Under the pieces are notes generated by a model. The model did not search any database and was not told where the DNA came from. It saw nothing but the letters and a program-made list of their open reading frames with translations. A stretch of DNA of 64,000 bases, from NCBI GenBank assembly GCA_964187785.1, contig OZ076410.1, forward strand, positions 26,784,001-26,848,000, read 5' to 3'. A program made the translations under genes and the position numbers. Positions 1 through 36,539 of this stretch are shown here, in pieces. This stretch comes from Amphiscolops sp. MND2022. Its lineage: Eukaryota. Numbering within the stretch: the first letter of the stretch is position 1; each line of letters opens with the position of its first letter.

Positions 1-180
1 AACCGATTTGGACCCTGATCAAGTTCATTTCTGTTCAAATCAAAGTAGGAAACACCTACCGCTTTGTGGTTAAATCCGAGGTTATGGCCGGTTGGATCAC
101 AGGGGTTTTGGAGAATTGCGGAATTGGTGTGAGGAGATGTATTAGAATGCCGGAAAGCAGTCTAAAATGCAGGAAGACAG

Positions 181-524
181 CTATCCAATGTATCCAAGTG
201 AAGACCACAAGAATGAGAATGTTGTAACTTTGTCAACAACTCTGTATGTATTTGATAGATATGACGGCGGAAAGCTCTGGTGTTCAAAAGTGTAGGGCGT
301 CAAAAATCTGCACGTGAAGAGAATTGAAATTGGCTGGGAGTTGTCAATGGGGACCTGGAGTCGATTGTCCCGGGAAAAATCCACAAGGGAAGGGGCGATT
401 GGACACTGAGTCCCAAGAGGAAGACTATGTTAAAGTGGAGTATAAATAAATATAAAGAGAACCTAATTGTCGAACTATCGGCTAAATAGTGATAATGACA
501 ATGATTAAATACTGGGTAATACAA
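181..524 (-). pseudogene. antisense accessory ORF B of G1 (hydrophobic N-terminus, frameshifted)
   Basis: LGLSVQSPLPLWIFPGTIDSRSPL / YRVVDKV aligns with LGHFVQSSHILWISRVFLRIVDIQSPL / FKVVDNL at 5342-5590 of G2. Confidence 0.4.
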
Positions 525-1240
525 GTGAAGAAGAAAATGGAAGAATTTATTATAAAGGAAATGAAAGTTGAATCAGCAGTGTGACAAGATGTCAAAATTG
601 GAGTTCGTGGCTATACAGTTTGGTGTCAAATTTGTTGTTATTTACAATTTACAGCATTATGTGGATAAAGTCTGCCAGCGGTATCTACATCATTTCATTT
701 ATTTCGAAAACTTCGTTATTTTTGAGAAATTTTTCATGATTTTATCATTCTTTTATTTCGTTTCAAAGTCACTTTTTATTATTCCTTATATGACTTGGGA
801 AGCCATTTTAACTGGGGAGGAATTTTGCTGCATTCCTATTGGTTGATCAGATTGATGGTGGACGGCGTGGCTGATTGCCATATCTTCACCTACTTGAAAC
901 TCTCAAGTACCTGATGAGTGTTAATAAACACTTGTAGTAACACTCCTAGCTTGAGAGTGCTAGCATAACTGATGATGAGTAACAAAGTAATTGTCGGCAG
1001 ATATGAAGAGACTTAGCGGCTTGATGAAAGGTTTTAAGAAGGAAAATTTTGTTTATTGAAATATTTCCAGACGGGAAACGAAACAGAAAACCCGGGAAAA
1101 AAATCGTGATATTGTGAAAATCCCGCGAGGCGAAGGATCGCCATTCGTACGATTTTAACCGCTCAAGTCAGCTGCCTCCGAACCCCAAAATACTAAAGTT
1201 CTTTCCAAAATTGCCAAAAAAAATAACAAAAGCTAGATTC

Positions 1241-2061
1241 ATGTCTGACTTTTCTGAAACATTCCCTTTGGAGTTCCTGGGCGCTGCTCAATCTGTTGGA
1301 GCTCCTGCAATAAAATACATTTCAAGCGACGAAGGCGAGAGAATGTATTCCTTCGACGGTGACTCAGGGACGGCGTCTACGTTTCATCTGAAGAAGAAAC
1401 GCTGGATATCGAAATTATGGCGAGATGCATAGAGAGACAAATGACCGAACCCATTGCTATTCCCAACGCTGAGACATCAGGTACTCAAGCTAGGTGCGGG
1501 ACACCTAAGCCAGATTTGCCGCCCTTCCCTACATTTACACAACAGTATTTCAACCTGGGTATGGGCAACGGACCTATTGGACGGGATGACCGAATTGACC
1601 CAATCATCCCATTAATATTTTCATACGACCTACGACCTAATATTGATACCCTAATGTTGCCACCGCCAGAAGATAAGGGACCAGTCTACGAACAAGATAT
1701 ACCGAGTTGCTCTTACTCGGCAAGCTCTACTTCAGTCGAGACTGTCGCAAATCACTTCAATGATATGACAGTGTCTGGAAACGCTGACCTGTTGGGCTGT
1801 TCAGACTGCGTGGTTTGTGGGAAGCCAGTTCAACAAATACAGGATGAAGCAACTATTGACTATCTCGACAAAACGGTTGTTCCAGGCGAGATGTTAGCTG
1901 AAACCGAGAGAAGAAAGAGAGCTTTCTTGGACGGTATGGCTGCTGGCACGTTTTTACTCGTGCCAGGGGGAGTGTCGCAGGCGGCCGCCTGCGATGCTAA
2001 CTGGTACACGGTCGCATATGGTTATTGCAGGGCCCTACCCGGAACAATTCCGCTAGATTGA
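1241..2061 (+). pseudogene. accessory ORF A of G1 (~270 aa, one frameshift near 1380), unknown function, CxxCxxC motif
   Basis: MSDFSETFPLEFLGAA... joins SSEEETLDIEIMARCIERQMTEP after a frameshift; contains LPPFPTFTQQYFNL, NGPIGRDDRI, CSDCVVCGKPVQQIQDEA. Homologue at 3880-4534 (-). Confidence 0.7.
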
Positions 2062-2429
2062 GGAAATACAAGCATTTGAGCCAAGAGGTCCAAGGCAGAC
2101 ATAATTAAAATTTTTACAAAAAAACTGTTTTGTATTACCGGTTTGCGTTATTATAGCATGTAATTGCGTACAGTCAGTAGCTATATTACTTGTTAGTTAT
2201 ATTTTAAAACAAGTAAATTTAATTAGATGTGCTGTGAATTGGACACCAAGGCGTACAGGTAGAGGAAACGCGTTCAAAGTGTTTCCTCTCCTGTCGCTGT
2301 GGACAAGCAGTCCAATTTAAATTAAACCAATCACATCTCAGCATTCAACTGAGCACTCTAATACAGCGTTGTTATTAGTGGACATTATGGCTACGCGCCG
2401 TTCATTTTCAAATAATGATATACTCGCTA

Positions 2430-3530
2430 AGGCGATGGGACACTGAGTCCAATTTGACTGGTGCTTTCATGATTGTAGTAATAGACTTATTTTGAAATAG
2501 AGTGTTGCGTACAATTACCTTCTTACAAATAAAGGTGCTATATCTGATGCCCCCCTTCTTGGCTCAAAGGCCGTATTCGACCACAGTCCAAATTCTCCTG
2601 TCTAAAGTATATGCGAGTGTGATCAAAACATGTAATTAATACATGAATGTTACATGCAGTGTTGCCTTCGTCGTCATAAAAGTGCAGTTGTCCCTTAAGG
2701 ACGAGAGAGGCGGTGTAACGCCTTTGAAGTGGCCAATAGGTCATTGCGTCATGTAACCCATAAATAGGTGATGCTATTTTTAGATTAGTACGTATCTATT
2801 TTTAGAACGTGACAGTTATTTTTTCGATAGTCATGCAGTCTATCATGTATATACCCGGGACTCTTGGACCGGAGGACACAATTAAGTAATATATGCAGCC
2901 TATCAATTGATCTTATTCTGTTTGCAAGCCTAAAGATAATTAATTCTTACCTCTTGCAATTGTCTCTTATGCCTTCTACAAGGAAACAAAAGGCGAAAGC
3001 TAGAAAGTCATGGGAAATGGACATGATGTCTGACTTTGAAAATATGGACGTAATGATGGGAAATGAAAATACTAATCCTATTGAACGTGAACTTTCAAAC
3101 ATGATCGGAACTGTGGTAAACGATCAAGACATTGAGTCCAATCCCCAATCTTCGCGGTATGAAACTCATGAAAATGAATTTGGGCATCATGCACTTGAAA
3201 ATGCAATTCCTAGGCAAGATAGGGTTCAAGAGAAAACCTTTACTAGAGATTTCAACATGAGATTTTCACAAGAAATGGATTCAATGATGTCATTAATGCA
3301 TAGTCAGATAAAGAGGGCGATAAGCACAGCATTAACCGAGAGAGTAATTCCAGAGATTCAAAATATAGTGAGTTCGATTTCATCCTCAGGGAATCGAGAC
3401 ACTGAGGCCAGTTCGTCACTCAATAGCCAGGAAAACGCTAAAATGAACAATGGGTTCAGAAACAAAATTGTGAAAAAGGACTCACAGTCTACTGGTGACC
3501 TTAGAACACCTAGAGACAGCAGTCCTTACA
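2430..3530 (+). repeat. 3' LTR of G1 (3' end firm, 5' end approximate)
   Basis: Ends ...AGTCCTTACA; carries the same ORF as the sequence immediately upstream of the PBS in G2. No clear PPT/TG start identified. Confidence 0.55.
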
Positions 3531-3541
3531 AAAAAACCTAA
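2969..3541 (+). CDS. LTR-encoded N-terminal Gag segment (~190 aa), open
   Basis: MPSTRKQKAKARKSWEMDMMSDFENMDVMMG...MHSQIKRAISTALTERVIPEIQNIV...DSSPY; homologous to 14790-14222 (-), where the frame continues into Gag. Confidence 0.7.
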   Translation: MPSTRKQKAKARKSWEMDMMSDFENMDVMMGNENTNPIERELSNMIGTVVNDQDIESNPQSSRYETHENEFGHHALENAIPRQDRVQEKTFTRDFNMRFSQEMDSMMSLMHSQIKRAISTALTERVIPEIQNIVSSISSSGNRDTEASSSLNSQENAKMNNGFRNKIVKKDSQSTGDLRTPRDSSPYKKT

Positions 3542-3879
3542 AAAAACTAACAAAACGTTTATTAGAGGTTTTTGCGAGATATTTGCAAGAATTTCTTGCA
3601 TGAATTGAGAACATGCGATGTGTTTCAGAGCGAAAAGAGAACAAAGGTTTCCAAAAAGTTCTAATCCAGAATTTTCAGTCAAAGTTGAGCCATTGTATTT
3701 TATTTTGACTGCGAAATAACAACTAAAACCACAAAATTTGGAAAAAACGTCGAAAATCATTCCATTTTGATAGAATAAGTTCTAAAAACACTCTATTCTA
3801 CTGGAATAACATCTAGTATCGCCGTATTCTGGTAGATTTCGTTTTTCGGTTTTTGCCTTTCCCTGGGTTTGCAAGCTGT

Positions 3880-4534
3880 TTGCAAGCGTTTCAAGCATCA
3901 TTCGTTAGCTCCTTCTTTGTTCCAGTTCATATTAACGGCTTCGCACTGAACTTGTTGGACTGATTTTCCACAGCCCACACAGTCCGAACAATTCATTAGC
4001 GCTGGGGTCTCTGTTAAAGCCATTCCATTGAAATAATTTGAAATTGTTTCCACTGAAGACGTGTCGATAGAATGAGAACAGACCGGCGAGTTCGGCCCGT
4101 AGTTTGGCCTCCTGTCCTCAATGGGGTGTCCACTTTCGGCACCAAGTTCCTGCATACGTTGATAGGGTGATTGTTTCGGATCCTATCGTCAAGTCTTATT
4201 GGGCCATTCTCAACAACGAGGTTAAAATATTTCTGGTCAAACGTAGGGAATGGTGGCAATCTTTGTCTCGCTGTACCACTCCTTTTTCGCGTCAATGCTG
4301 TCCCTGAGGCTGAATCGGGATTGGATCGGTCAACTGCCTCTCTACACAACTGGCCATCACTTCAATATCCTCTGATTCTCCATCTGATGATTATATCACG
4401 TCATCTACTGATCCTACACTGACAGAGTCCATGTGGGCGTCGTCGTCGGTTGATAGGTAAATTATAAGAGTTTCTGCTTCTGATCAAGCGGCGCCCAAAA
4501 AGTCCATAGGGAAAGTTTCTGATATATCAGACAT
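3880..4534 (-). pseudogene. accessory ORF A homologue in G2
   Basis: MSDISETFP..LGAA..SSDGESEDIEVMASCVERQLTDP, LPPFPTFDQKYFNL, NGPIRLDDRI, SSVETISNYFNGM, CSDCVGCGKSVQQVQCEA. Confidence 0.7.
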
Positions 4535-5341
4535 GAATCTTTTTTTGTTTTTTGTTTGTCGTTTTCAAATGCAGAATTGTGAAATGAGTTTTAGGTTTCG
4601 AGTTTAGAGTAGGATGCTGAACAGTAGGAACAAAATTGAATGAAAGATAATTTTCCTCGCTCGGGGTTGCGGGAGATTCACCCAAACTCGTTAGGTCTTT
4701 TCCCGGGTTTTGCATTTCTCTCTTCGATAAAATACGCAACAACCCCTCATCGCTCTTCGATGAAAGAGGACGGAGTCATTGTTATCTAATACCTTACTTG
4801 CTTCTTTAGATCCGTACGTATCCATCAAGACTTCACTGAATGTTTATTAACACTCACAAGCCATTTGAGATTCTCGAGTAGATGAAGATATGGCTGAAGC
4901 CCACGCTCACTTGTTTCATTACAGGCAGCCGATAGGATCGCATCAAATTTTCTTCCTTTTCAAAATAGCAACCCGAGGTCAAAATCCAAATCCAAATAAG
5001 GATTAGAGCAATATGACCTTGAAATAACGGAAAAAAAATAAGATAATGGTACACAGTAAAAAAGTTTATCAACTAACATAATGTATATATTTCCGGCAGA
5101 TTTTATCCACATGTCGATATAAAGACTATACACTTGTAAATTTTACACCAAACTGTAAAGCCACGAACTCCAATGCTCAATTTTGAAATCTTATCTGATC
5201 GCCAATTTTCCATTATAAGTCTTTACGTTCAAGTCATCATCTTAGTATCCTTTTCTTCGTTTTGTATTATCCAGTATTTAGTTACCGGCTGTATTTACTT
5301 CCACTTGCATTTAAGATATAGTTAGTCTTCTAGTCTTTGAG

Positions 5342-5590
5342 TTGTATTCATTCGTATTCTTCATTTATATTTCCATCTTGGGACACTTCGTGCAATCATC
5401 CCATATTCTGTGGATTTCCCGAGTCTTCCTCCGGATTGTCGACATCCAGTCACCTCTTCTTTGCTCACTGCTTTCTGTCTTTAAGGTGGTAGACAACCTT
5501 TCCCATTGGACACGCAGTCTCTATGAGTCATCATGCCCCATCTCTAGATCCCCATATTCAATCCACCGAAGCTGTTACTCCTCCGAGTGA
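5342..5590 (+). CDS. antisense accessory ORF B of G2 (82 aa, hydrophobic N-terminus)
   Basis: ORF track plus partial homology to 181-524 of G1; the ORF track start at 5342 is a TTG codon. Confidence 0.35.
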   Translation: MYSFVFFIYISILGHFVQSSHILWISRVFLRIVDIQSPLLCSLLSVFKVVDNLSHWTRSLYESSCPISRSPYSIHRSCYSSE

Positions 5591-5855
5591 GCCCAGATGT
5601 GAACCTAATTCAAGTCAAACAACTGCTTCTAGTCCAGAGTCAGCGAGGGTGACTGTGAATCTATATGTACTATCTGCCCGCAGGCCAAACACAAACCGGC
5701 CGTACCTAATCCCCCGCGGAAGAAGGGAAAATTGATGGGACGGCCTAGCAAGGTAATGAAGCCAGCTTAATTCAAAGGGACAAAGGTATTCGTCAACGGC
5801 CTCTTAAATCCTGTCCATATTAGATATAAATTTTACTGCCAGATATGTAAAACGA

Positions 5856-6911
5856 ATGTATCCATCTATTCCAAAGGAGCCGGGAAGATCGTCCGCCATT
5901 ACCAGTATGAGCCCCCCCCCCCTGCGAAATGACCAACTATGGAGGTACGAACATCTGAGAAGAGTCGAAAAGATCACAGGAGTCACAGTACACTCTGTTA
6001 GGGGGAAAGATGTGCACATTCTCTCTGCAAATGAGCTGGAAGAGGAAAAACCACTTCTCGAGTTTGCTCCACTATTGGACATTGGCACTCAATTCCCCTT
6101 CTACGAGGATTACATGGCTAACGCTGCTGGGTTGACTAGCCCTGAAGATGTTTGACTTGAGACCCAACTCTCCCTCATTGGCCGTTTTGTCCATTACTTT
6201 GGCAACTTCGGCATCTTTGTTGGGCTTTGGGCAGAAGCGGGTAACCAACTACCAGAACATGTTCAGAGGTCTCGACGGGGCTCCTTTACACTCACGTATG
6301 TACATGGTTTTCAACTTTCCTTTCTGAGTGAGGTTGTTGAGGGTAAAGCTAAGTATTGTCCATCACAGTCGTCTACTTCATGGTTTCAAATGATTTGACT
6401 TGTTTCAGGCCATTTTTCATCATGTTTTCGGCACAGCATGGACGATAGAGCCCAGTCTGTAAATGATGCAGAATTTTAGTCCCTCGAGTTTGCGCCACTT
6501 AGGATTGTACTCTCTCGAGTTCATTGTATAGTGTCCCTACGGTACTGGAAGTTCGACCATCTCGTCAAGGTTCAGCACTGCAGATATAGCCTCGCTACCA
6601 ATACAGGCCCCAATCAACTGCTTGCGATTGCTCGAGTTTTGTCCTTCCTTTCGACAGCTCCCCAGAATGTCTGCATGTCAGGCTGTACCTCTGAGGTCCT
6701 CCGGGCAGTAGAGCAATCTACTTTACTCAAGAGAGGGATTGAGTATTCTTTGCGTTATAATGCCTTGTCCCTGTCCAAGCTTATGCTTCAGTCTGAAGGG
6801 AGTGTATTTGGCCGAAGTGACTTCTACACGCAGTTGAAGTACCTCGTGGCCTATCTTGGCAATAGTCTTGATGAACCTTGGATCGCCAACACGCCTGAGC
6901 TAAGTAAGTAA
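5856..6911 (+). pseudogene. antisense accessory ORF C of G2 (~350 aa, disrupted), unknown function
   Basis: ORF pieces 5856-6155 and 6531-6911 linked by protein-like intervening sequence with stops/frameshifts; lies inside the G2 3' region. Confidence 0.45.
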
Positions 6912-7059
6912 GGTAAGTATCATAACTTAAGTCTGAACGCAAGTTTCCTTTTGTGCATAAGATCCACGTTAATGTTCCCTCCAGGCTGTATCCACGTGTG
7001 ATTTGCGAGATCGAGCCATTCCCTCGATTTGTTCTGAGATTCTCACCAGCTGGCAACCA

Positions 7060-7760
7060 GTTCTTGGATCACATCACTAAGATTGCAACGGGTACGAAAT
7101 GAAAGGAGTCAAAAAAAGGGTTATTCGAAGTTTCGTTATTGGTAAGGTTAGACCCTTAGTCCAAATATAACTAACGAGTCTTGTTTCTTTCCAGCAATAG
7201 ACTCTTGAGTGGCTCATCATCAGTGATGACTTCTTCCCATTCAAACTGGAATTCTTTGGGATGATCAAGAACGACTGTAAGTTTGTTTTCCTTACTTTCA
7301 CAATGGTACTTGAATGGGCTTTCCATTGGGTATTTCACTTCATTAAGTGCCCCAATTGTTACATTTTTCAAGAATCGGCTTTTCCTATTTAGACAAAAAA
7401 TGTTTTGAGATGAGCCTGGGGGATTTGTTTTCTGGATTTTTCACCTTTGGACAAATGAACAGCTTCGTCCGCAAGCTCTGTTGTCGCTCCCTTTTCCGAA
7501 ACACTTGCCTGAAAAAAACTGACTGGATACAATTACCCGTGACACGTAAAGCTGAGCCCCGTCAACTGTTTTCTCCACAGATTGCGATTGAAGCAAGATT
7601 TGGACGAAGCAGCCACAGCTAAAGTCAAGAGGGACCATAGCAAAAGAGAGGGCCCAATGCCCACCTTTGACGACCTGGTGGAAGAAGCTAGAGAAACGTT
7701 TGTTGCAAAAGCAAGGGGCTATCTTGTCGTTTTGCTTTAAAACCTCTCGGATCACTTTAG
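7060..7760 (-). pseudogene. sense accessory ORF D of G2 (Cys-rich N-part, fragmented)
   Basis: Consecutive fragments 7441-7755 (PCFCNK, FSCGCF, KCFG, ACGRSC), 7171-7371 and 7077-7301. Confidence 0.35.
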
Positions 7761-7785
7761 CCTGTATGCCGACAACGTGAGAGGA

Positions 7786-8515
7786 ATGGCCCGCACATTC
7801 TCCTGAGTTTACCTTTACAACCGGCTACATTCTGCGTCACCGCATTTTACAATAGATTTAGTCTTTCCTCTTAGGTGGTTGGAGGGGTCCGCAGAGGACG
7901 ATTTGCGGGACGAATATTTGGAAATTCGTGGGCCACTTTCGCCAGACTTCAAAGAATTCACCTGACGGGTTTACTGACTCGGTGAAATTATTGTCAGCTA
8001 TGCCCCAACTTCGAAATCGCCTCCACCTTTATCGTCTGTTTCTCTTGAGCTGTATGTGCCTAACCGAGGATACCAATTTGCTGCCTCCTGTGCGGTTTCA
8101 GGATGTTGATTCCCAAAGTCCCAGATGCAGATTGGATGACGTTTTGTTACTCGCAGAATCCTCTTTAGCCAGAGTTCCGGACTCTATTCCTGTTTGTTAT
8201 TACCCAACTTCATTACCCAATTTCCGTGAATTAGAAGACCATTTCAACTCTGGGAACGTTGCTGGTGATCCCTGAAATCATGTCGACGTCTTTGGCAGGG
8301 CTATTTTTTACAAAAACCTCTACACGACGTACAAATCTATAACGCTTCTTCCAGTCGCTCTGCCTCTTGTTCGAGTTCTCCTTCCACTAGTGGTTGTCAT
8401 AAGAGATCTTATGCAAAGGGGAAACGAAAAGTCGCTTTTGGTTCCACAGAGGCTGCAAAAGAAGATAAGGGCCAAACTAATTTGAACAATCTACTTCTAA
8501 AACCTAAATGTACAT
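7786..8515 (+). pseudogene. antisense accessory ORF E of G2 (~230 aa, disrupted)
   Basis: Stop-interrupted frame MARTFS*VYLYNRL...YLEIRGPLSPDF...LPPVRFQDVD...LEDHFNSG, ending near 8510. Confidence 0.35.
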
Positions 8516-8899
8516 AATGTACATTTGTTTCATAGACCTGTACTTTGTACTCCATGTGTGTTCATTTATTCTGTTTGTAATATTTTATAGCTTATGTTGT
8601 AACGTCTATTTGCCAGGCAGTCCAAATGTCAGAATATTCCAAAGAAAAGATGCATGCTATCTCGGCCAAGTAGTAAAAATGGGACATTACTTTTTACGTT
8701 CTGTCTTTAAGTTAGGGATGGGTTAGGTCGAAGAGTAACTTTGCTTCCTCTAGGGTTAGAGTTATCTTCAGTTTTTTTCTTTTTTCGATATACCGGGCAC
8801 GGTAAAATCTGCGCCTCCTTTTGAAACATTTTCCGCATCATTTAATTCATTAGTGACGTCATTTTCATGTTGAGCCACTATAGGCTTCTGGGGACGCCA

Positions 8900-10330
8900 C
8901 GCCTCGGCTTCTGGCCGGTCTCAGCCTTTTTCATTTTCAGTGATGTCATTTTCTGTTTTTTTCGTCGCTGCTGCGTTCATCGTCGTGTGCGCTGCTGCGC
9001 TCATCATCAGTGACGTAAGAGTACACTTTGCCGCTCGCAGCGTCGTTCGGTAGGCGTGGGGCCGTTGCCGGCTAATTGTCTTTTCTCGTTTTAAACAGCT
9101 CGTAGTCAAAAACTACTTACCATGAAATAGTATACAAGTCGAATTGCGGTATTACTATCTCATCGTTGGGCTGTATTTTCTCTCCAGAGTATTCGTCCGC
9201 AAAGGGCGTGTTAGGGACAACATGCTTGAGTCTACTTCGATATAATACTTTCGTTTTGTTGGTATTCAATCGACGCACAATATTCTTGTCATATGTCAGG
9301 ACTTTTTTAATCACAAAAGAACCAATCCACCGATAGTCTCTAAACGGAATTTTCGATACTTGGCTGTCTTCTTTAGGTTGTAGGGAAAAAATAACCCGTT
9401 TCTTTAATCGAAGCAGCTTTGGTCTTTCGGTCATAATAATCCTTGTACTTTAGGTACGATTGCATGATAATTTGTTGGTCTCGTCAATCAGGACTTGAGT
9501 TCTTTGCTGTACTTCTCACGCAAATTCAGTTGTTGGCAAAAAGTCTTTTATCAGGATTATTTCCTAATTTGTGATCTAGGACGTTGTATGGAATTCGTAC
9601 ATGGATTACTTTGCTCAACTCACATCCAATACTGGAATGATATGTAGCATTACAGTTGAGTACTGCTAGCGACAAGTATTTATGCCATTGACGTCGGTAT
9701 TCACCTGGGGTCATTTTCAAGATTGTTTTGAGAGATATATGTGTCCCTTCTAGTTTGCCAATTGTTTGCGGGTGTTTAGTAGTAGCGCATCATGCTTTAA
9801 GTGTTATCCCCAAAATCTGAGCATTTTCTGCGACCACTGTTGACGTAAATGCGGACCCCTTGTCTGTGATGAGGGTTGTCGTCAAGTATGAGTGTTTTGT
9901 CATGATATCATTTGTGATTTGGCTACAGTTGTAGCTGTTGCCTCAATTAGTGGACATTATCTTGAGAAAACATCAATTGCTGTCATCACCGTCTGGTAAC
10001 TGCCGCTGGTAGGTAAGTTTGGAAGTAAATCAATGTGCATGGCATCATCTGCTCCAAGACCCATTCTGGCAAAGTAAGCAGTTCGAGCGTTAGTGCGTTG
10101 TTTGGGACACATTCGTCCTTGGAACAATTTTCGCAGCCTTTTACCCATCTTTTACTATGTTTTGCTATTCCCGGGTAGTATTATTTTTAGCGAATTTCCT
10201 AAAATGTTTTGGATATACCAGGAGGTTTGAATGCCGTACCATGTGTCAAAGTGTTGTCTCTGAGGAATATACTATTTGGTCTTAGTTGTTCAAATAATGT
10301 TTGTACCGAATGTCCTGTTGAAGAATTTTT
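8900..10330 (-). pseudogene. gypsy integrase (G2)
   Basis: Degenerate HHCC (HGTAFKPPGISK..GCENC), MHIDLLPNLP..TAIDVFSR, DKGSAFTS, TTKHPQTIGKLE, YRWIGSFVIKKVL. Confidence 0.9.
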
Positions 10331-10399
10331 TCAAACTTTTCTTGTTTCACTTTTTTCGCTTTCAGTCGGAGTAAAATCGTGTCTCTAGATTGTTCCCAC

Positions 10400-11790
10400 A
10401 GCGTCTGGTTGGTTCTCTGTAATTTCTGGGGGACATTGGTATTTTCATCCACGTTAGTTCGGATATGGCATCAGTTTATATAACAGTCTCACAGATCTTG
10501 TGTCCCGTTCTGGACAGTGTTTTTCGTTCCCAAATCTGTTCTTCTGTTTCGTCACCTTCTTCAGTGAAGAACATTTGCTCTTCCTCCGACACGCCTGCTG
10601 ATTTGACAATGACCTCAACTGACCTTGTTTTGACGTCTTCTCGTGTTTTCAAGAGCAAGTTTTCGTTAAGATCCATTTTCATTCGAGACAGGTTCTCCGC
10701 TATGTATCGTTTTTTCCTTGAATAAGAGCTGTTATGTAATTGGAATGTATCACATAATCGCAAGCTTTCCAGAATGTCGGTGGTACGATTTTTGTCTGAA
10801 AGAACCTCGTGACCAATTTTTGTATGTGGGGATACTTATTGAAATTGGTGTTCCTCAGAAATCATGTCCAAACGCTTTTGAAGGCGTAATACATGGCTAG
10901 GAATTTTTTCATATATTGATATTTTCAACTGCGAGGGAGTAAATGTTTTCGATTCATAGACGATTGGCGTATAGAAGTTTTTGACCGAAGTATACTTTTG
11001 ATTTGGGCCATCTTCGGTCAGAATGGCATAATCCGCAGACGTGAAACTTGCGTCTGACATTAAGACCAGTTGTTTGTTTGGTTGTTTCAAGGCCAGTTAG
11101 CTACACCTGTCATGGTCTTGGTTAATTTCGTTAATTAGTCGTACCAGCTCCGTGGTCACTAAGACCTTCTCGTCCTTTTTAAGGAGTTGGAAGAATGGTA
11201 CCAGTTTTTCTGATAATCTTGGTATGTATTTCCTGTAGTAACCGAGGAAACCAAGATGTCGCTCAAGGCCTTCTTGGATTTTGGAAAATCGGTTTTCTCT
11301 AAAAAAAAAAGTGGCGATTCTTTCCTTTTGAGGTTTGACACCTTCTGGGGTGATTTTACTCCCTAGGAAAAGAACTCCAGTTGCACCAAAATGTCACTTG
11401 TGCATCGGTAATTTGATGCAGTGAAATTCACCGAATTTTTGCCAGCCGTGAGCTGCGCGGCGTCCGTCAGGGTACTGACTGGGTGATTATTATTTGTATA
11501 ATCATCTGAGATAAGGTTGTTTATCTTCCTCAGGTCGACTAGCAGTCGTAATTTCCCATAGGGCTACTTCTGCGCAAATATGGGGCTCGCATATTTGAAT
11601 AATGGTAGGGTTGTAATAATGCCATATTTATGGAGTGACACCGATTCAACCAGTATGTCCTCCTTTAAATTGATCGAGGTAGGCACACTTTGGCTTTATG
11701 CATTTGAAATGTCCATTGGAGTTATTTTGACACTGAATTCTTCTTTTATTCCGATGTCAAATTTTTGACCGGCGACGATGGAAATCTACA
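10400..11790 (-). pseudogene. gypsy reverse transcriptase / RNase H (G2), RT catalytic core deleted
   Basis: YASPIFAQK, RLLVDLRKINNLISDDY..HPVSTLTDAAQ, FLGSKITPEGVKPQ, LVLMSDASF, SKTFTPSQLKISIYEK; no YxDD motif present. Confidence 0.9.
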
Positions 11791-12900
11791 AAAGGGATTG
11801 AATTTTTTTGATTTCATGCTGTTGGAGCATTGAGTCCTGCCAGTCAAAATTGCTAAAAAACTTGCGTCGAGACTCTTCGTGATCGTTCGAACTTAGCATT
11901 TCCGCTTCTCGCAAGTTGCTCAATTCTTTGAGGATTCGTATCTGTACTGGCGTGTGAGACTCCTCGTCGCCTGGGTTTTCGGGTTTCGGGAACCAATAAT
12001 GTTCGTATTGGTCATTGTTGCGGTTCGCTTTGAGCATACTACTAATGTAGTAGACTGCATTTTCCTCATTTTCGTTGAGCAAATGCTACTTGGTCACTGG
12101 GTCCATTGGTTTTACGTGCTTCATTTGCTCTGGAATCATGACTGAGAGAATTGCAATGTGCAGCCCCTTTTTGAGTTTGTAAGGTTAATCCGAGAAAATG
12201 TTGATTGGTTTCCTCATTGTCCCTTCTAGTACGTGGCACAATATAGCCTCCATGACGTTCGAGTACTTGTGGTCAGCCGTCTTTATTTGCTTTGAGAAAA
12301 ATGGGAAATTCAAGTTGTCTTGTCGCATGTCCAGGACAGTGTGGTTCCTTTGCAGGAACAGTAGTCCTATTTTTGTGCCAGTGAGTTTCCCCATGGCGAT
12401 GAAAAGTTCGACGCTGCTTTTCGGAGTCTCAAGATGACCGTTCGCGACTAAACTTCGAAAGGTGGGCGCAGGACCTGCTTTTACTATCAACTGGGAGGGG
12501 GGGGGCAGAGAGTCGGATCCTACTGAGGTCAGCCTCTGGTATGGCAATTGATAATGCCCCAGTGTCTATTAGTTCATCAATGGTCAGTTCTACCAAATCC
12601 ATTGGAAAATATAGCATTCTTCGTTTGTATTCAAGAGCGTGGTTTGTCGATAGGGGAATCTATGTTGGTTCTCCTTATTTGGCGACTGGGACGTGTAAGA
12701 CTACCTTCTTGTCTAGCAGTCCTCGTTCGTCCTGAGGCTTACATTCGTGTAGTGATTCCGCTATTTCCTCTAAGGCATTAAGTTCCGAATTTGGCTGCCA
12801 AAGTTCGATGAGTGCTCGGGTTAGTCTGTTGTCTTCGATCACAGGATTGTTCTCATCGTCTGTTGGGGGGTAATCGTCGCATTTGAAATGTAGTCTTTAG
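11790..12900 (-). pseudogene. gypsy aspartic protease and PR-RT linker (G2)
   Basis: LIDTGALSIAIPE active-site motif near 12570; IGLLFLQRNHTVLDMRQ; YWFPKPENPG. Confidence 0.8.
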
Positions 12901-12999
12901 TATAGTTATTTTCATAGAATCTGTCTGGGCGATCTTTATGTACTTTTTCATAGGTTTTGATTTAGGCTTTTCCGTCTGTTGCTGTCAGACAGCGGACGG

Positions 13000-14790
13000 A
13001 AAACCATTTGTATCCTTGATAACTTGGCTGAGTTTAATTATTGGAGGGTCTGATTAGACGTACTGTCACGTACTGTCGCATCGACATGTAGTCATGTATT
13101 GCAAAATATTTTTTTTGATCGAGGCTTCCTTGAAATGATTGGCCTGAAGTTGACGATTCTGCATTCTTGGCCTTGTTGGATGTTCCTTCATCACTTTCGG
13201 GATCATTGGCTTTGTCATCTGGTCGAGTCTTTTTAGGACGTAAATGAGCGCGTTCCTTTCTTTGGGATGATTCTTTTTCTCACATGTTTCACATGGCGGG
13301 TTTGTTTGACGGTGCGGTTTTATACCACTTTTGTCCTCCATTTCTTTTTCCTTTTTAAAAATCGGACAACTTCTCCGGAAATTGTCATTTGCTTTGCAAA
13401 AAGAGCATTGGCACCTTTGTTGGTGTCAATCCCATTGGACAGCAAGTTGCTGATTTTGCTGAGGCCATCGTGGCCATTGGTAGGTCATCTGATTCCTCCT
13501 CCGATGCATTGAGTTCTAGCTCTTTTTCTATATGTGCAACAATCTCTTCATATGTACCGTTCTATAGGCGGTCCATATTGACAGATCGTTTTAGTTTTGC
13601 AGGCAGCCTAGCGTACAACAAGCTGTACATCTTGCTTTTTGCGTTTTCACCAAACGTTTTTTCAACACATTGGTTTAGTTATTCCAAGAAATCCGGCAGT
13701 TTCATGGTATCAGGGTCGAAAATGAGCCTATGTCTTTTGTGTTTTTAGTCGTTTCTTGTGATTCCGGTTTCACGTATTTTCTGCGAAAATTGGCCAGCAC
13801 GTCCTCCAACGTTTGACGGTTTATCGATTTTATGTTCTTGAATGTCTCCAATGGCCCTTGTCTCAGCAATGAGTTTGAAATGATTTTATTTCATTTGCTA
13901 TGTCATTGCAGGTTGCATTTTAATCATCGTGTGGAACAAGTCCTCGAAGTGCTCGACTTTCTCGCTCTTGCCATCAAATGTCATCGGTGTTGTAGTGATT
14001 GGTCTAATCGTCATTGATTGTAGTTTGTTCTGCAGATTGACCTGTACGTCGGCCAATCTGCTGAGAGGATCCTGGGGTGGGACAAGGAGACAGGGCTGAC
14101 AGGGTCGTGTCCAAAGAAATATTGAGGATCGATTCTTGTCTCTCCAGGTTCGGATTTGAATGGATTCGTCCTGTCAAGAATTCAGGAATTTGCCGTAGGG
14201 TGTCAGTAGCTCATGTCACCATGTAAGGACTCAGGTCCTCCGTGTCTCTTAGATGAAGAGCAGGCCCATGGTCCTTTTGTGTAATTTCAGTTTTTCAGTT
14301 GTTTCATTATTGTTCCCCTTATTATTCGATGACAAACCGGACTCAGTGTCTCTATTCCTCGAAGATATCGAACACAAAATATTCTGAATCTCTGAAATCA
14401 CTCTCTCGGAAATCGCACAGCTAATAGCTCTATTCATCTGGGAATGCATCGTGGACATCATGGAATCCTCATCATGGAATCCTCGCGAGAGCTTCATGTT
14501 GGTTTCATTTGATAATGTTTGCACTGATTCCAAAATTCTATCATGCCAAGGAGGCTGGCCTTCGTGGTCGTAGTTTCTGATTTCAATTTCATCAGAGAGT
14601 TTTGTCCTAATATGCAAATCAGACTCGAGGTCATTTTGCCAATTGAACCCTTGATCATTTTACCTAATTCTCTTTCTTGGAGATTTGCGTTTTCATTTCC
14701 AAGCAAAACGTCCATATTTTCAAAATCGGACGTCATGTCCATCTCTCTTGACCTTCTAGCTTTCTCCTTTTGTCTTTTTGTAGATGGCAA
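13000..14790 (-). pseudogene. gypsy gag (G2), including LTR-encoded N-terminus
   Basis: MPSTKRQKEKARRSREMDM... then SPYMVT*ATDT across the LTR/PBS junction, FDGKSEKVEHFEDLFHTMIKMQP, FRRKYVKPES, degenerate Zn knuckle PPCETCEKKNH. Confidence 0.8.
14202..14221 (-). promoter_or_regulatory. primer-binding site of G2 (tRNA-Leu-like, degenerate)
   Basis: TGGTGACATGAG directly follows the LTR end CCTTACA; resembles TGGTGTCAGGAG, the complement of a tRNA-Leu 3' end. Confidence 0.55.
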
Positions 14791-15294
14791 AAGAATTGTG
14801 CGAGAGAGTAATATTTAAACTGGTTATTTCAGAACTTTCAACTTTCACAATCAGGTTAATAAGGGAAAATGTGTCAATGCCTTCTGGGATGCTCTACATA
14901 TACTCCCAGAAGTATGATATTCCATTTCGGAGAAGTCATGGTACTAAAAATATAATCACTACCACCGAAAACAGAAACGTATCAATAAATAGCAACATGA
15001 CGTGTGAAGTTCAAAGCGCTAGCGGCAACATTTGTTTATGCCGCCACCTGGTCCACATAAACATTATATAACATAGCAACGTGTAATACATGCAAATCCG
15101 ATTGTCGTAACATTACATGTAGTGTATATGTAGGCAACATGACATCAAGCCATAAGGGCCGAAATGTATATATGTATACCGCAACAGTGAATGATTTTCA
15201 TAATCAGTATCAGTTATTTCATGCTGGGGCAGAATAGAGGATTATATAAAAAATACATGCATTCAAACTTACATAACAAAATACTTCACTTACA
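14222..15294 (-). repeat. 5' LTR of G2 (outer boundary approximate)
   Basis: Ends AGTCCTTACA at 14231-14222; candidate TGTAAG starts at 15294 or 15273 on the minus strand. Confidence 0.55.
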
Positions 15295-16524
15295 TGCATT
15301 GTTTGAAACAAGCTCAAATGATTGCTATAACTAGGCGTAGTTTTAGTTTCAAAGTTTTGTCTTGTTTATTCCAGGACGGCCTGTCGGGCTTTCTTAGTCG
15401 AGAGGAATTGTCCCAGGGAGAGTGTTATAGTAGTTGTAAGAGATGGAGTACCAATTTCCATCGCATGCGGCAGCTTGCGACAATAATCCTAACCATTATA
15501 TTGACTGTCAGTTGAAAGTTGCCGATCAGATTTTCATCACGGATAAAATTTGCGTTGAAACAGGGGCGTTTTAATACTATTTTATCTTGCTCCAAGCGTG
15601 AATTTTTGCATTTTGGACAAAAATATAATTAAACCAGGGTAATTTTTTGCCTGAAGTGTCAAAACAGTTGTGGAAACAATCCTTTAAGTATTTACATTCA
15701 TATAATATTCTCTAACTAGTGAAATATTTTTATTCAAGAACAAAATGTGCTTTCGTGTTGGGGGGGGTATGTAATTTCCAACAAGGTGTACCTGGGGGGA
15801 AATTCAACACATGGGTTTTTCTTGAAATGCCTTTGAGCCTTCAGGCAATCTTCTCTGGGTCCTCCCATTTAAATTTTTATCATTGTGTTGATCAGGTAAA
15901 TTGTTTTTTGCTTAAGTGGACTGCCCTCTGAGAAATTATTAATATACAACTGGTTTTCATATAGAAACTCGATCCCAGGTTGAATTTTTTGAAAGGTGTG
16001 TTTGCTTGAATAGCCTTTGTTTTGTTTGCGCTCTTTTTGTTATGAAAGAAATACAGTTTCTATTTAATGGAAGATTGTCTTTCAGTTCTAGCAGAACTTA
16101 GACAATTAGATAAAGGATAGGGTACACATTCTCTATTGCCACTAATGTGATTGATAGCTTACTAGACTGCCCTTCGCGTAATCACAACTCAGCAAAAGCT
16201 CTCAGAAATTGTCACTCATCAAGTACAAATAATGTCCATGCATTGAGAGAGGAGACAGACTTTTAAAATTTACGTACTCGCGCATGGTCGAAAGAATTTC
16301 AATATTGGAGAGCAGAGCGAATGAAACAACTATGTACAAAATGCTCGGTGGCGAAATTCAGGGTCAATGAAATATTGGATTTACTCTTCATCAGAGACTT
16401 AATCATTTAAGAAGTATTCATTTCGTCTATCGGTAAACCATGGAATTTCATTTATGAGTTTTTTCTTACTCGCGCATTTGTCAATAGGATCAGTCTGTTT
16501 CAGTATTCAGTAGTAAATTTCGAT

Positions 16525-24280: not shown

Positions 24281-27091
24281 CACTTCATCCCAAAATAAGA
24301 AAGGACCTTAATCATCTGAACAAAAACTTATTTGAAAGCCTTTGGATAGAATGCAACCTGAACAATAACGCCCATTATAAAAAAAACAACTCATCAACAT
24401 CAGCTACAACCCAACAAAATCTTCAATGGATTCTTTTATTGAAGAATTATCAACCAGCATTGATTTTGCCGTTACCGAAAACAAGCCAATAACCTTGATG
24501 GGGGATTATAATATCGACTATCTCAATTGGAAAGAAAAGCAATGCTTAGATTCTGTCATTGTTCCCTATGGACTAAGCGTTATCAATAAAAACCAACCAA
24601 CCAGGATACAAGGAAATTCCAGCTCCTTGATCGACTATATTATAACTGATCTTCCCCATGCTGAAAACTTTGAGTCCGTTGTGTCTGATACAACATTGAG
24701 AACACTGAAGAATACAGACATTGATCACCTAGCTACCTCAATCATTACAACGATAGAAATGAAAACAAAATCAAAAGTTATAACAAAAGAAATTTTCGAT
24801 AAATCAAATTATTCGAAAGAGGTATTCCGCAACATCATCAATAATGCTAACTGGAGTAGTTTCTATAATCAAGATTGTGCTGAGGGGATGTACACAATAT
24901 TTTGCGACATCATTGAGAAAGCGCTTGATAAATGTACCCACAGAAAGACAGTTTTCGTCAGAAATGATAAAAGTATTCTTACTATGCATAATAAATGGAT
25001 CAAAACACAGACCCGGAACATTTATCGAAAAATCAACCCTAACTCAAACCCAAATGAGGTTGCCTATAAAACACTTAAACATGATTTCATCGATAATTTA
25101 AGCGCTAATGAGATGGAACATAAAATTAAATGCTTCAATGGCTTGACATCAGAAAAAGATAAATGGAAATTTATAAACGAAGCCAGAAACGCCAATAGAA
25201 CTGCAACGACAATATCGAGCCTAAAAAATTGCTTCGGTGATCTAGTAACTGACGACTTAAAAATTGCCAACTTATTGAATTATCGTTTTTCCAAATTGGG
25301 CAATTATCTAGGCGACTATACAAGCTATATTCCACAGCTAGATGGTGAAAACAAAAACAATGAATTTATGTTTCAACCCATAAGTCTATTTGAATGTAAA
25401 AAACAGATCAAGAACTTGAATATCAATAAACCTATAGGACCATCGAAAATTCCTGCGTGGGCTTTAAAAGACGCCATGAATGTAATTGCTGAGCCACTCA
25501 CTTTTCTGATTAACGCTTTTCTGGAGGAGGGAATATTCCCAAACCATTTGAAGCAAGCTTATGTTATACCAATATTCAAAAAAGGAGATTGCGAAGAACC
25601 TAACAACTATCGACCAATCTCTATTACTCCTGCACTGTCTAAAATTTTTGAAAATGTCCTAAGAGACCAAATCACTCAATTTTTGAACAGAAACAAACTA
25701 CTCACTTCATCTCAATTCGGTTTCCGTGAAAATTTTTCTTCTGTTGACGCGCTGTTGTATGCTACTGAGAACAACCGGAAAAAATTAAATGACAGCGACA
25801 ACGTTGCTGCTGCATTCTTGGATCTTTCGAAAGCGTTTGATTCTATTTCTCATTCTATTTTGCTGGACAAATTGCGAGAACTTAATTTTGGTAATCATGC
25901 AGTCTCATTGATAGAAAGTTATCTCAAAAAAAGAAATCAAAAAGTGATGCTCACCACTTGTAAATCGGATTGGATACAATTATATCAAGGTGTTCCACAA
26001 GGCACTGTATTGGGTCCTCTTCTCTTCAATATTTACGTCAATAGTATGAGAAAATCGGTTTCTAACAATTGTCAACTTGTACAATATGCTGATGATACAA
26101 TGATATTTTCAGCCCATCTAGATCAAAACCAAGGGATACAAAATCTAGAAGAAAATATCAGAAAACTGGTTCACTTTTTTGAAAGCCATAGACTGACTAT
26201 CAACGCAGATAAGGCTGAATTCATAGCTTTCTGTAAACCATCCAAAAACAATCAAATGAAAAATCAAGAATTGGTGGTGAAAAATGAAGTAATCAAAAAT
26301 TCGGACTGTGTAAAATATCTTGGAGTCCTTCTTGATCAGAACCTAAGTTTTCAAAATGAAGTGAAGAATCTTTTGAAAAAAATGGCATGCGGAATCAAAA
26401 CATTATACGCAATACGTGAATCATTTCCCGAGAAAACTCGGATACTGATAATGAATGCATTGGTTATCAGTCATGTTCATTATTCTGCTATCTTGCTTAA
26501 TGGAGTTTCAGAAAGTCTGTTGACAACTTTGGAAAAACAACTGAGCTGGGCGGTTAAAGCGTGTTTTAATAGGAGAAAATATGATCACTCAGCGGATCTG
26601 AAACTTTTACATGAGATACTACCTATACGATATTTCTTGAAATTAAAATCGGCTTTGTTTTTTTTGAAATTCTGTCACAACATGGTTCCTTCTTTAACGA
26701 ATGATAATAGACCAACTACTGCGGTTTTCAGAGAACATAAAAGAACGGATCAAATCTACCTCGATATCAAAAGAAACAGTATCTTTATTGAAAATAGCTT
26801 TTTCAACAAAGTGATCCCAATATGGAACAACCTACCGAAAAATTTGAGAACCGAACGACATTCATATCAAACAATAAAAGCGAAAATGAAAAGGTTATTT
26901 CTGGAAAAATTCAGAAACGAACTAAACCTTCCCGAATATAACAAAAAGTGTTGGAAAGATTTTAAATTTCATTAAACCCCTGCCATTACAATACTTATGA
27001 TTAACCTGAATTTTTTTTAGCGTAATACACTGCTTTGTTTTAAAACCAAGATTTTGTTTTTAATAACAAAGATATAATTCAGTGTTTTTTT
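24281..27091 (+). mobile_element. 5'-truncated CR1/L2-group non-LTR retrotransposon, with TAAT target duplication
   Basis: Empty site in unit 1 reads tgtataataaagg; here tgtataat|insert|taataaagg (TAAT at 24277-24280 and 27092-27095). Confidence 0.92.
24426..26975 (+). CDS. LINE ORF2 (C-terminal APE endonuclease half + complete RT), 849 aa open
   Basis: MGDYNID, PTRIQGNSSSLIDYII, NNYRPISITPALSKIFE, QFGFR, FLDLSKAFD, GVPQGTVLGPLLF, QYADDT, YLGVLLD, IWNNLP; frameshift in the A-run at ~24380 upstream. Confidence 0.95.
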   Translation: MDSFIEELSTSIDFAVTENKPITLMGDYNIDYLNWKEKQCLDSVIVPYGLSVINKNQPTRIQGNSSSLIDYIITDLPHAENFESVVSDTTLRTLKNTDIDHLATSIITTIEMKTKSKVITKEIFDKSNYSKEVFRNIINNANWSSFYNQDCAEGMYTIFCDIIEKALDKCTHRKTVFVRNDKSILTMHNKWIKTQTRNIYRKINPNSNPNEVAYKTLKHDFIDNLSANEMEHKIKCFNGLTSEKDKWKFINEARNANRTATTISSLKNCFGDLVTDDLKIANLLNYRFSKLGNYLGDYTSYIPQLDGENKNNEFMFQPISLFECKKQIKNLNINKPIGPSKIPAWALKDAMNVIAEPLTFLINAFLEEGIFPNHLKQAYVIPIFKKGDCEEPNNYRPISITPALSKIFENVLRDQITQFLNRNKLLTSSQFGFRENFSSVDALLYATENNRKKLNDSDNVAAAFLDLSKAFDSISHSILLDKLRELNFGNHAVSLIESYLKKRNQKVMLTTCKSDWIQLYQGVPQGTVLGPLLFNIYVNSMRKSVSNNCQLVQYADDTMIFSAHLDQNQGIQNLEENIRKLVHFFESHRLTINADKAEFIAFCKPSKNNQMKNQELVVKNEVIKNSDCVKYLGVLLDQNLSFQNEVKNLLKKMACGIKTLYAIRESFPEKTRILIMNALVISHVHYSAILLNGVSESLLTTLEKQLSWAVKACFNRRKYDHSADLKLLHEILPIRYFLKLKSALFFLKFCHNMVPSLTNDNRPTTAVFREHKRTDQIYLDIKRNSIFIENSFFNKVIPIWNNLPKNLRTERHSYQTIKAKMKRLFLEKFRNELNLPEYNKKCWKDFKFH

Positions 27092-35667: not shown

Positions 35668-36539
35668 ACAACTTTCCGCCAGAGTTAGAGCGACTAAGTA
35701 GTTACTCTCATAGTTGGAGAGCAGTAACGCGAGAAGATAGAGTGAGAGAAGTGTGTAACGGGTCACATCGGATCCAAACAAGTGCAAAGCGGATCGCCTG
35801 GAGATCCAACGGGTCAACATCGAACCTAACTGTTAAAAGGTACAGTCCTTCAAAGCGAAAAAACCAGGATTTGTTTAGTAACGGTCCACTGTAAAACTTG
35901 TCCAACCTCAGCGCAAGATAACGACAAGTTGCCGTTACAGAAATTGTTTTAACGATATAGGTGTCCACTTGGTTAGAATTAACAAGATTGGTAAGATATT
36001 GATTATTGCGGGTGTTAATTTCATTTAATTCTTGTATTCTTTTTTCAATCGATTTTTGTAAACTTTTGTTCATAGCCTTATTGGAGAGTTGTATTGCTCT
36101 AGTTTGATCTTGTGTCGTTTGTGTTGTAGTTTGAGTAGAATCGCGTAGCGCTTGTATTTGCTGGTTTTGTTGCTGTTGGATTTGGTTTTGGCTTTGTTTC
36201 TAGTTTTCTGTAACGGGTTCAAATACTTCCCCCATATCGTAATGAAGGTCCTGTTCCCCACGTTTCTCTTTTAATCTTTCAGCTTTCAATAATGATCTTG
36301 TATATTTTTTAGCTTTTCTAAATCATCACGACTATGAATTGAAGACATTCAAAAATCTTTAATTTTGAATATACAATAAATTTAAACGTTCAGACATAGA
36401 CTTATTCCGATGATTATGTCTATCGGTTCACCATGTATATGTCTGATGAAAATATTTTTCATGATACGATAGACATTATCATCGGAACATGCCTATGTCA
36501 TGAATTCTTGAATCGAGGTTAATGCCTTTGTCTCCAAGG

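Follow-up and report, generated by a model that had tools for sequence, protein, structure and literature searches.

A conserved accessory gene between an antisense gene and the 3′ long terminal repeat of a Ty3/gypsy lineage in Amphiscolops sp.

ORF A in the Window

A stretch of 64,000 nucleotides from the genome of Amphiscolops sp. MND2022 (contig OZ076410.1, positions 26,784,001–26,848,000; the window) was analyzed. It contains parts of two gypsy-type elements in convergent orientation, G1 on the plus strand and G2 on the minus strand, and both carry a copy of an open reading frame (ORF) called ORF A. Across a large Ty3/gypsy lineage, ORF A is conserved as an accessory gene and lies between a spliced antisense gene (gene B) and the 3′ long terminal repeat (LTR). 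The peptide blocks that a preliminary description had reported as common to G1 and G2 were present where it had placed them, and tblastx blocks between the two copies showed 51–58% identity with a combined E of 1e-63.

ORF A of G1 (1241–2061, plus strand) was split in two by a frame change near 1366–1369, with 1241–1366 in frame +2 and 1369–2061 in frame +1. Natural relatives matched it in tblastn at 76% (residues 1–42) and 84% (residues 44–273). The polypurine tract (PPT) of G1 lies inside ORF A at 1963–1972 (plus strand) as a purine run abutting the LTR start. The 3′ LTR (TG...CA; 1973–3530, plus strand) opens with the last ~30 codons of ORF A, and its end contains the 5′ part of gag (2969–3505). 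The accessory region of G1 (part of gene B, spacer and ORF A; window 1–2061) was present as three nearly identical tandem copies (period 5.2 kb, 97–99% protein identity), which are either a recent duplication or an assembly artefact.

ORF A of G2 (4534–3916, minus strand) spanned three frames with several stops and was truncated, matching only to about residue 211. The order of G2 was 5′ LTR (15482–14222), gag, pol, antisense gene and ORF A. The 5′ LTR (14222–15482, minus strand) repeats the C-terminal codons of ORF A in its first ~90 nt; residues 243–273 matched at 15489–15397 with 71% identity (tblastn). The gag remains (13112–14790, minus strand) start inside the 5′ LTR and cross the primer-binding site (PBS). 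The pol remains (8716–13119, minus strand) follow the order of relatives: protease, dUTPase, reverse transcriptase (RT), RNase H and integrase. The gene B remains (5633–8338, plus strand, antisense to G2) were multi-exon, with a zinc-finger-like N-part and a hAT-like last exon. The arrangement had been called tail-to-tail. This was right for the orientation and wrong for the tails, as G2 has neither the last third of ORF A nor a 3′ LTR. Because both window copies are broken, the analysis rests on uninterrupted natural copies from elsewhere in the genome.

Structure and Abundance of the Element

In the host genome (1.07 Gb), the Ty3/gypsy copies with ORF A number at least in the hundreds. Genome searches with four ORF A variants gave at least 140–152 matches each, and 132 of the 150 matches listed for one variant were stop-free within the match. 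Subfamilies diverged to 25–30% identity with the frame still kept. For three distant homologues the best copies in the host genome reached only 47%, 39% and 45%, so the ORF A family also occurs in other hosts. A word-based search found 105 homologues and a profile search 526 representatives (E ≤ 0.001). No named member occurred among those read in 15 clusters.

Sixteen elements, picked to span the ORF A subfamilies, were mapped. The order pol, antisense gene B, ~1-kb spacer and ORF A was found in all 16; a gag capsid was present in 15 and paired direct terminal repeats in 15. In a natural copy, Pfam placed a protease (residues 220–307), dUTPase, RVT_1 (618–783), RT_RNaseH, Integrase_H2C2 and rve in gypsy order along pol. 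Both copies inspected showed the Ty3/gypsy hallmarks of TG...CA LTR ends, a 5-bp target-site duplication, a PBS after the LTR and a purine run before it. The PPT and the LTR start fall inside ORF A at about residue 242–245. Therefore, U3 takes in the last ~30 codons, which appear again at the 5′ LTR.

Several further observations were made on the LTRs. The gag start lies ~550 nt inside the LTR, and the frame reads through the LTR end and the PBS (window 2969–3530), so each 3′ LTR holds a gag fragment of ~185 codons. Whole elements occurred in head-to-tail arrays with common LTRs at periods of ~14.2–14.7 kb. A 60-nt U3 block was 87–93% identical among LTRs that otherwise did not align there and is a candidate promoter or poly(A) element.

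Selection on ORF A

Pairwise dN/dS (ω) was calculated for 78 distinct uninterrupted ORF A copies in 11 clusters. A maximum-likelihood codon model was fitted to one natural copy per cluster (11 copies, kappa fixed to 2). The model gave ω of 0.09 with a log-likelihood 605 better than ω = 1, and ω of 0.08 when the LTR overlap was excluded. Six clusters had at least three copies, and pairwise ω inside these was 0.18–0.32, values biased low by the choice of copies as best protein matches with open frames. The closest between-cluster pairs had ω of 0.07–0.10 at dS of 0.95–1.97 and dN of 0.10–0.13, and most other pairs were saturated. The choice of intact copies cannot, however, yield saturated synonymous sites next to a dN of 0.1. 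The ORF A codons overlapping the LTR had lowered dS, a sign of extra DNA-level constraint. Constraint on ORF A was much weaker than on pol: over the elements, median identity was 34% for ORF A versus 92% for RT. ORF A is almost certainly a selected protein gene. The proposal of a selected accessory protein in a retroelement lineage was thus borne out: ω was far from 1 across copies, and no known Env or accessory family was matched with confidence.

Start Codon of ORF A

An in-frame I-A-K-K-[IL]-[IL] motif was found in 16 of 16 elements, 18, 30, 33 or 39 nt (6–13 codons) upstream of the first ATG. All four spacings are multiples of 3, which was counted for a start at AUU. The motif was present at 105 of 112 distinct ORF A 5′ ends, in frame in 101 of the 105, and the other seven had degenerate versions. 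The first codon of the extension was ATT in 97 and ATA in eight of these 105, never ATC; in every one the −3 base was A and the +4 base G, while −2 and −1 varied. From the Ile codon onward, codon positions 1 and 2 were nearly fixed and position 3 was free; the Ala codon used all four bases, four times each. Before the Ile codon, only an A-rich context was conserved, and an in-frame stop can be located three codons upstream of the AUU/AUA. Between that stop and the AUU/AUA codon, 44 of the 105 copies had no AG, which excludes a splice acceptor there. ATGs were rare in the 100 nt upstream of the start, with four over the 16 elements versus 19–47 in each of ten other bins. The downstream ATG had a pyrimidine at −3 in seven of 16 elements.

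Criteria described for non-AUG starts in human genes are a near-cognate codon, A at −3, G at +4 and coding constraint to the next AUG (PMC3105428). The ORF A pattern fits these criteria as given there, and its likeness to conserved non-AUG N-terminal extensions consists of the AUU/AUA codon, the −3 A and +4 G, and the constraint up to the next AUG. Translation of ORF A likely starts at the AUU-type codon, as judged from codon conservation. The coding region therefore probably begins upstream of the Met used in the preliminary description. In G1, the putative AUU start (1210–1212) and the basic N-terminal extension lie at 1207–1240 (plus strand), recognized by motif conservation; the distance from AUU to ATG is 31 nt, which puts them out of frame in this copy. 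A spliced leader as the source of an AUG was rejected, as the leader described in a related acoel lacks an ATG (PMC9911081) and many copies have no acceptor. Among the 15 of 94 literature matches listed, there was no case of a non-AUG extension in an accessory gene of an LTR retrotransposon. The probable conserved AUU start would be a clear case of the kind missed by gene callers.

Predicted ORF A Protein

ORF A encodes ~275 aa in a single exon. The product is acidic (isoelectric point, pI, 4.1–5.7) and, by its model, mostly disordered. The AlphaFold model had a mean predicted local distance difference test score (pLDDT) of 56 and a predicted template modeling score of 0.26. Its sole confident part was a CxxC knuckle with two helices at residues 190–236 (helices 197–211 and 219–236; block pLDDT 79–89).

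Motifs were counted in 19 representatives below 62% identity, drawn from 29 full-length sequences. The first 70 residues had a net charge of −7 to −21 with aromatic and aliphatic residues interspersed. S28 and D30 were each conserved in 19 of 19, and [ST]PxSP in 18 of 19. A strict pattern of the SUMO-interacting motif (SIM) type, [VIL][VIL]x[VIL]SS[DE], was present in 12 of 19, compared with 0.06 in shuffles; the patterns were chosen after the alignment had been viewed, so the shuffle figure shows conservation and not function. In the standard SIM as described, serines and acidic residues come after a hydrophobic core, and phosphorylation by CK2 is frequent (PMC12751080). The region in ORF A had a four-residue hydrophobic core, a Ser/acidic flank and disorder (pLDDT about 50). 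The corresponding segment of G1 (1310–1339, plus strand) is degenerate and reads IKYISSDEGE. When the N-terminus of ORF A was modeled in complex with SUMO, without controls or alignments, the score was 0.06, and this was counted neither way. LxCxE (1 of 19), PxDLS (0 of 19), PxVxL, RxL (12 versus 9.4 shuffled) and the classical nuclear localization signal (NLS) were not enriched. The RACK1-type FPxL motif was rejected, as ORF A has FPxD[FL].

The CxxCxxC motif proposed earlier did not hold for the family, its first Cys being kept in only two of 19 members. The conserved pattern was CxxC-G-K/R with two distant Cys: C128 (18 of 19), C190 (19 of 19), C193 (17 of 19) and C251 (18 of 19), so that CxxC was kept in 17 of 19. 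The model has low confidence around C128 and C251. Metal binding by a ligand set other than CxxCxxC is possible from this pattern. In G1, the knuckle lies at 1807–1824 (plus strand), with C190, C193 and G194 conserved, and is followed by the predicted two-helix hairpin.

Searches of Pfam (31 + 31 members), NCBIfam, PDB sequences and the ESM Atlas gave nothing at the cut-off, and PF04195 was not matched in Pfam; ORF A is sense. A fold search of a viral library gave nothing at E ≤ 0.001, where the low confidence of the model means that absence proves nothing. The ORF A VIA fold search had a best Z of 6.2, with generic two-helix matches only to a low-confidence model. The earlier statement that no named family could be matched thus agreed with the sequence-family, PDB and fold searches.

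Gene B and the Spacer

Gene B is antisense and intron-containing and has a CxxC...H...H finger. Its GT-AG introns sat at corresponding positions in all four families viewed. No PF04195 match was found for pieces of gene B. The last exon gave concordant but weak leads to hAT transposases and no Pfam or Foldseek match. Its Atlas score was 0.90 for a cluster in which 60% carry PF05699 and 0.88–0.89 for FAM200-like proteins, and in the fold search the hAT transposase Hermes ranked third (Z 5.8, root-mean-square deviation 3.8, 85 aligned). Gene B and ORF A open with a similar short motif, FPLDL and FPMDF, respectively. No homology between ORF A and the last exon of gene B was found.

The colinear sequence upstream of ORF A in G1 and G2, described earlier as non-coding, was real and non-coding, with no codon periodicity (0.19/0.19/0.15), frame-breaking indels and an ATG that was not kept. 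For the same reasons, a small ORF (MSKLEF...) in the upstream conserved block was ruled out. The blocks were 597–700 (G1) against 5174–5071 (G2) and 877–930 (G1) against 4894–4841 (G2); the G2 blocks (4841–5174, minus strand) were identified as two inverted repeats.

Three spacer boxes held their sequence and their distance to the putative start. Box I was found in 12 of 16 spacers at −580 to −650, box II in 11 of 16 at −510 to −580, and TAAACACT in 13 of 16. In G1, boxes I and II (599–678, plus strand) are conserved without codon periodicity and are candidate internal promoter elements; a TAAACAC box conserved across spacers lies at 916–932 (plus strand), ~285 nt upstream of the putative start. 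The RTAAACA core of one box resembles a forkhead site. A two-way internal promoter in the ~1-kb spacer would be the simplest reading of these features. A role for AATAAA in internal polyadenylation was rejected, since it was absent in five of the 14 elements keeping TAAACA, and the box was missing in two of 16.

Exchange of ORF A between Elements

Three elements had nearly the same gag-pol, with RT synonymous differences of 0.07–0.16. Their ORF As were 48–78% identical with saturated synonymous sites, and pairs in this RT range showed an ORF A synonymous difference of 0.69–0.72. In trees, gene B of one of the three appeared closest to a second lineage and its ORF A to a third. The LTR of that element was a mosaic: the first 310 nt matched its ORF A sister (72%) and the 3′ part its gag-pol sisters (90–91%). 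ORF A with the 5′ part of U3 is thus swapped between near-identical gag-pol backbones, and gene B is exchanged independently of both gag-pol and ORF A. Template switching in reverse transcription would give such a mosaic. Identity ranks still correlated overall (rho 0.41–0.79). Fast divergence and swapping relative to pol are features that host-facing genes tend to have.

Other Features of the Window

An 864-codon open frame at 24381–26975 has an RT domain (PF00078, E 2e-39), is flanked by two 6.8-kb direct repeat copies and is apparently another retroelement. A tandem repeat with a 2245-bp unit in about three copies lies at 30606–35748. The open frame at 42090–42821 matched the REJ domain (PF02010, E 4e-8) and probably represents an exon from a polycystin-like gene of the host. 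An Rfam scan of window positions 1–16000 found nothing. Elsewhere in the genome, intronless frames of 506–511 codons encode tandem ubiquitin-like domains fused at the C-terminus to a domain whose YHGT...GKGIYSTP motif recalls ADP-ribosyltransferases.

Proposed Function of ORF A

The ORF A product may be a mostly disordered SUMO-binding regulator that blunts host silencing of the element, a reading to which we give a probability of roughly 0.35. A small, fast-evolving and exchangeable element protein with a SIM-type motif is best read as a counter to SUMO-dependent silencing. The host genome encodes a SUMO protein whose nearest matches are named acoel SUMOs (83% and 80%), which makes an acoel host likely. 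In flies, silencing guided by PIWI-interacting RNA (piRNA) is described as running via SUMO and the SIM-bearing SetDB1/Wde (10.1101/533091; 10.1101/2021.07.27.453956).

A possible course of events would begin at the spacer, acting as a two-way internal promoter for a short sense ORF A mRNA and a spliced antisense gene B mRNA. Weak starts at AUU would give a form whose tail, M-A-K-K-I-I-K, is basic, and leakage to the next AUG a shorter form. In the protein, the hydrophobic-SS-acidic motif would be a CK2-tuned SIM, T/S-P-x-S-P would serve as a kinase switch, and C128 and C251 would join CxxC in a small zinc-held module. The protein would compete with or divert the SUMO-dependent co-repressors that silence transposons, and the zinc-finger product of gene B would possibly bring it to the element.

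Several points weigh against this reading. The strict SIM pattern was missing in seven of 19 representatives, and SIM is a loose motif. The acidic-hydrophobic tail would fit an activation domain equally well, a classical NLS was found in one of 19, and the zinc site stays putative in a model that is poor overall. The precedent for SUMO-dependent silencing comes, as far as it can be carried over, from flies and not acoels. The low bias of within-cluster ω noted above counts here, and the best-conserved C-terminal block (SQAAACDG) doubles as the LTR end with lowered dS, so its conservation is partly DNA-level. In 16 more distant elements, NG86 ω was 0.27 for ORF A (19 of 120 pairs usable) versus 0.025 for RT (16 of 120), about ten times higher. 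The swapping of ORF A with U3 could reflect adjacency alone.

ORF A may instead be a transactivator of its own LTR or internal promoter, similar to foamy-virus Tas or other regulators encoded at the 3′ end of retroviruses, with the acidic N-terminus as activation domain and the Cys module binding DNA or a host factor. The position of ORF A, with a putative internal promoter on one side and the 3′ LTR on the other, recalls Tas/Bel and was counted in favor of the idea together with the charge and the aromatic and aliphatic residues of the first 70 positions and the co-travel of ORF A with the first ~300 nt of U3. However, the co-travel follows from the overlap of ORF A and U3, no basic DNA-binding region was found at pI 4.1–5.7, and the fixed SS-D spacing after the hydrophobic core exceeds in specificity what activation domains generally require. 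Transactivation is less probable than the SUMO-binding reading, but close to it. A CERV-like or Rev-like role, in which a phosphorylated Cys-containing nuclear protein exports or protects the full-length genomic RNA, is a further close rival of somewhat lower probability. CERV, from the pol-3′ LTR interval of a gypsy element, is described as having a loop of four Cys and a phospho-serine that is essential (PMC10309623), and ORF A has four conserved Cys and the conserved T/S-P-x-S-P. Yet CERV is given there as 517 aa, spliced from gag exons and built of three folded domains, whereas ORF A is one acidic, mostly disordered exon of ~275 aa.

The disordered chain, the acidic CK2-type patch, the proline-directed sites and the small Cys module would also suit a motif-rich hub of the E1A/E7 kind, acting on host cell-cycle, degradation or death pathways and not on element chromatin. 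An AxCxE helix occurred in 10 of 19, but LxCxE was found once, PxDLS never, and RxL not above shuffles, which leaves this role improbable. ORF A is in the env position on the sense strand, as a remnant of Env or a structural particle protein would be. This origin is very improbable: by hydropathy scan alone, the top 19-residue value was 0.49–1.61 (≤1.31 in 17 of 19), and the N-terminus is acidic and lacks a signal peptide. The scan of the 19 representatives gave no clear transmembrane stretch and Pfam no Env family match. Finally, conservation at the DNA level, or an artefact of choosing intact copies, would leave ORF A without a protein role. The last 30 codons do overlap the PPT and U3 with reduced dS, and copies were picked by protein similarity, but ω of 0.08 before the PPT, saturated synonymous sites between subfamilies and a frame kept to 25–30% identity refute this explanation, whose probability is negligible.

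The SUMO-binding reading can be extended to a swapped, sequence-specific anti-silencing cassette in a piRNA/SUMO arms race, resembling the control regions of complex retroviruses but in an animal element without env: the two-way promoter would drive a disarmed hAT-derived DNA-binding protein on one strand and an AUU-initiated SUMO decoy overlapping the LTR on the other. As a whole, this extension is speculative and rather unlikely. ORF A bears on the question of how LTR retrotransposons of animals persist under piRNA/SUMO silencing; element-encoded anti-silencing proteins are established mainly in plant DNA transposons. The ORF A proteins form a strongly selected family, as yet unnamed, in a lineage of very high abundance.

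Comparison with Known Systems

The premise that gypsy elements encode only Gag and Pol, and sometimes Env, was too narrow, because accessory ORFs have been described (PMC10309623, PMC5408684, PMC7264820). CERV of Caenorhabditis elegans Cer1, compared by description only, is spliced to gag exons, has 517 aa and is well folded (PMC10309623). ORF A, in contrast, is single-exon and overlaps the PPT and U3; it also carries a SIM-like motif and probably starts at AUU. An N-terminal half spliced from gag-frame exons, as in CERV, was not found for ORF A, where 44 of 105 copies had no AG. The bdelloid elements Vesta, Juno and TelKA are likewise LTR elements of invertebrates whose pol includes a dUTPase and whose extra ORFs can be exchanged; the ORF3 proteins described for them are Env-like, GDSL esterase, DEDDy nuclease, coiled-coil or transmembrane proteins, and ORF A matches none of these (PMC5408684). 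The plant gypsy elements Retand (TRP28), Grande (gene23) and RIRE2 are described with a lengthy pol-3′ LTR interval and conserved extra ORFs that are probably regulatory, and their antisense ORFs resemble gene B in position (PMC11963269, PMC7264820). Unlike in these plant elements, a sense and an antisense accessory gene here face away from one common spacer, and ORF A has no PF04195.

Among complex retroviruses, human immunodeficiency virus nef, foamy Tas/Bel2 and mouse mammary tumor virus sag are 3′ accessory genes, and an accessory ORF running over the PPT into U3 is found there as in ORF A. The difference is that no sequence or fold similarity to them was found for ORF A and that the element has no env. 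VANC of VANDAL/MuDR is similar in proposed role, as a fast-evolving, element-encoded counter to silencing, the role of ORF A being conjectural; VANC belongs to a plant DNA transposon and has a DNA-binding domain of other origin (PMC13547354). In the literature searched, no description of the ORF A lineage or protein was found; repeat libraries (Repbase, Dfam, GyDB) and supplements were outside this search, so a library entry may exist. In the text available, the acoel genome paper gives the LTR share only (PMC9911081), and a term search of the survey of env-carrying elements gave no mention of acoels (PMC13524379). Accessory ORFs in gypsy elements are already known, and what is new here is the probable AUU-type start, the SIM-type motif and the swapping of ORF A with U3; the preliminary description had none of these, nor the overlap of ORF A with the PPT and LTR. 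With ORF A, gypsy elements reach a layout like that of complex retroviruses without env.

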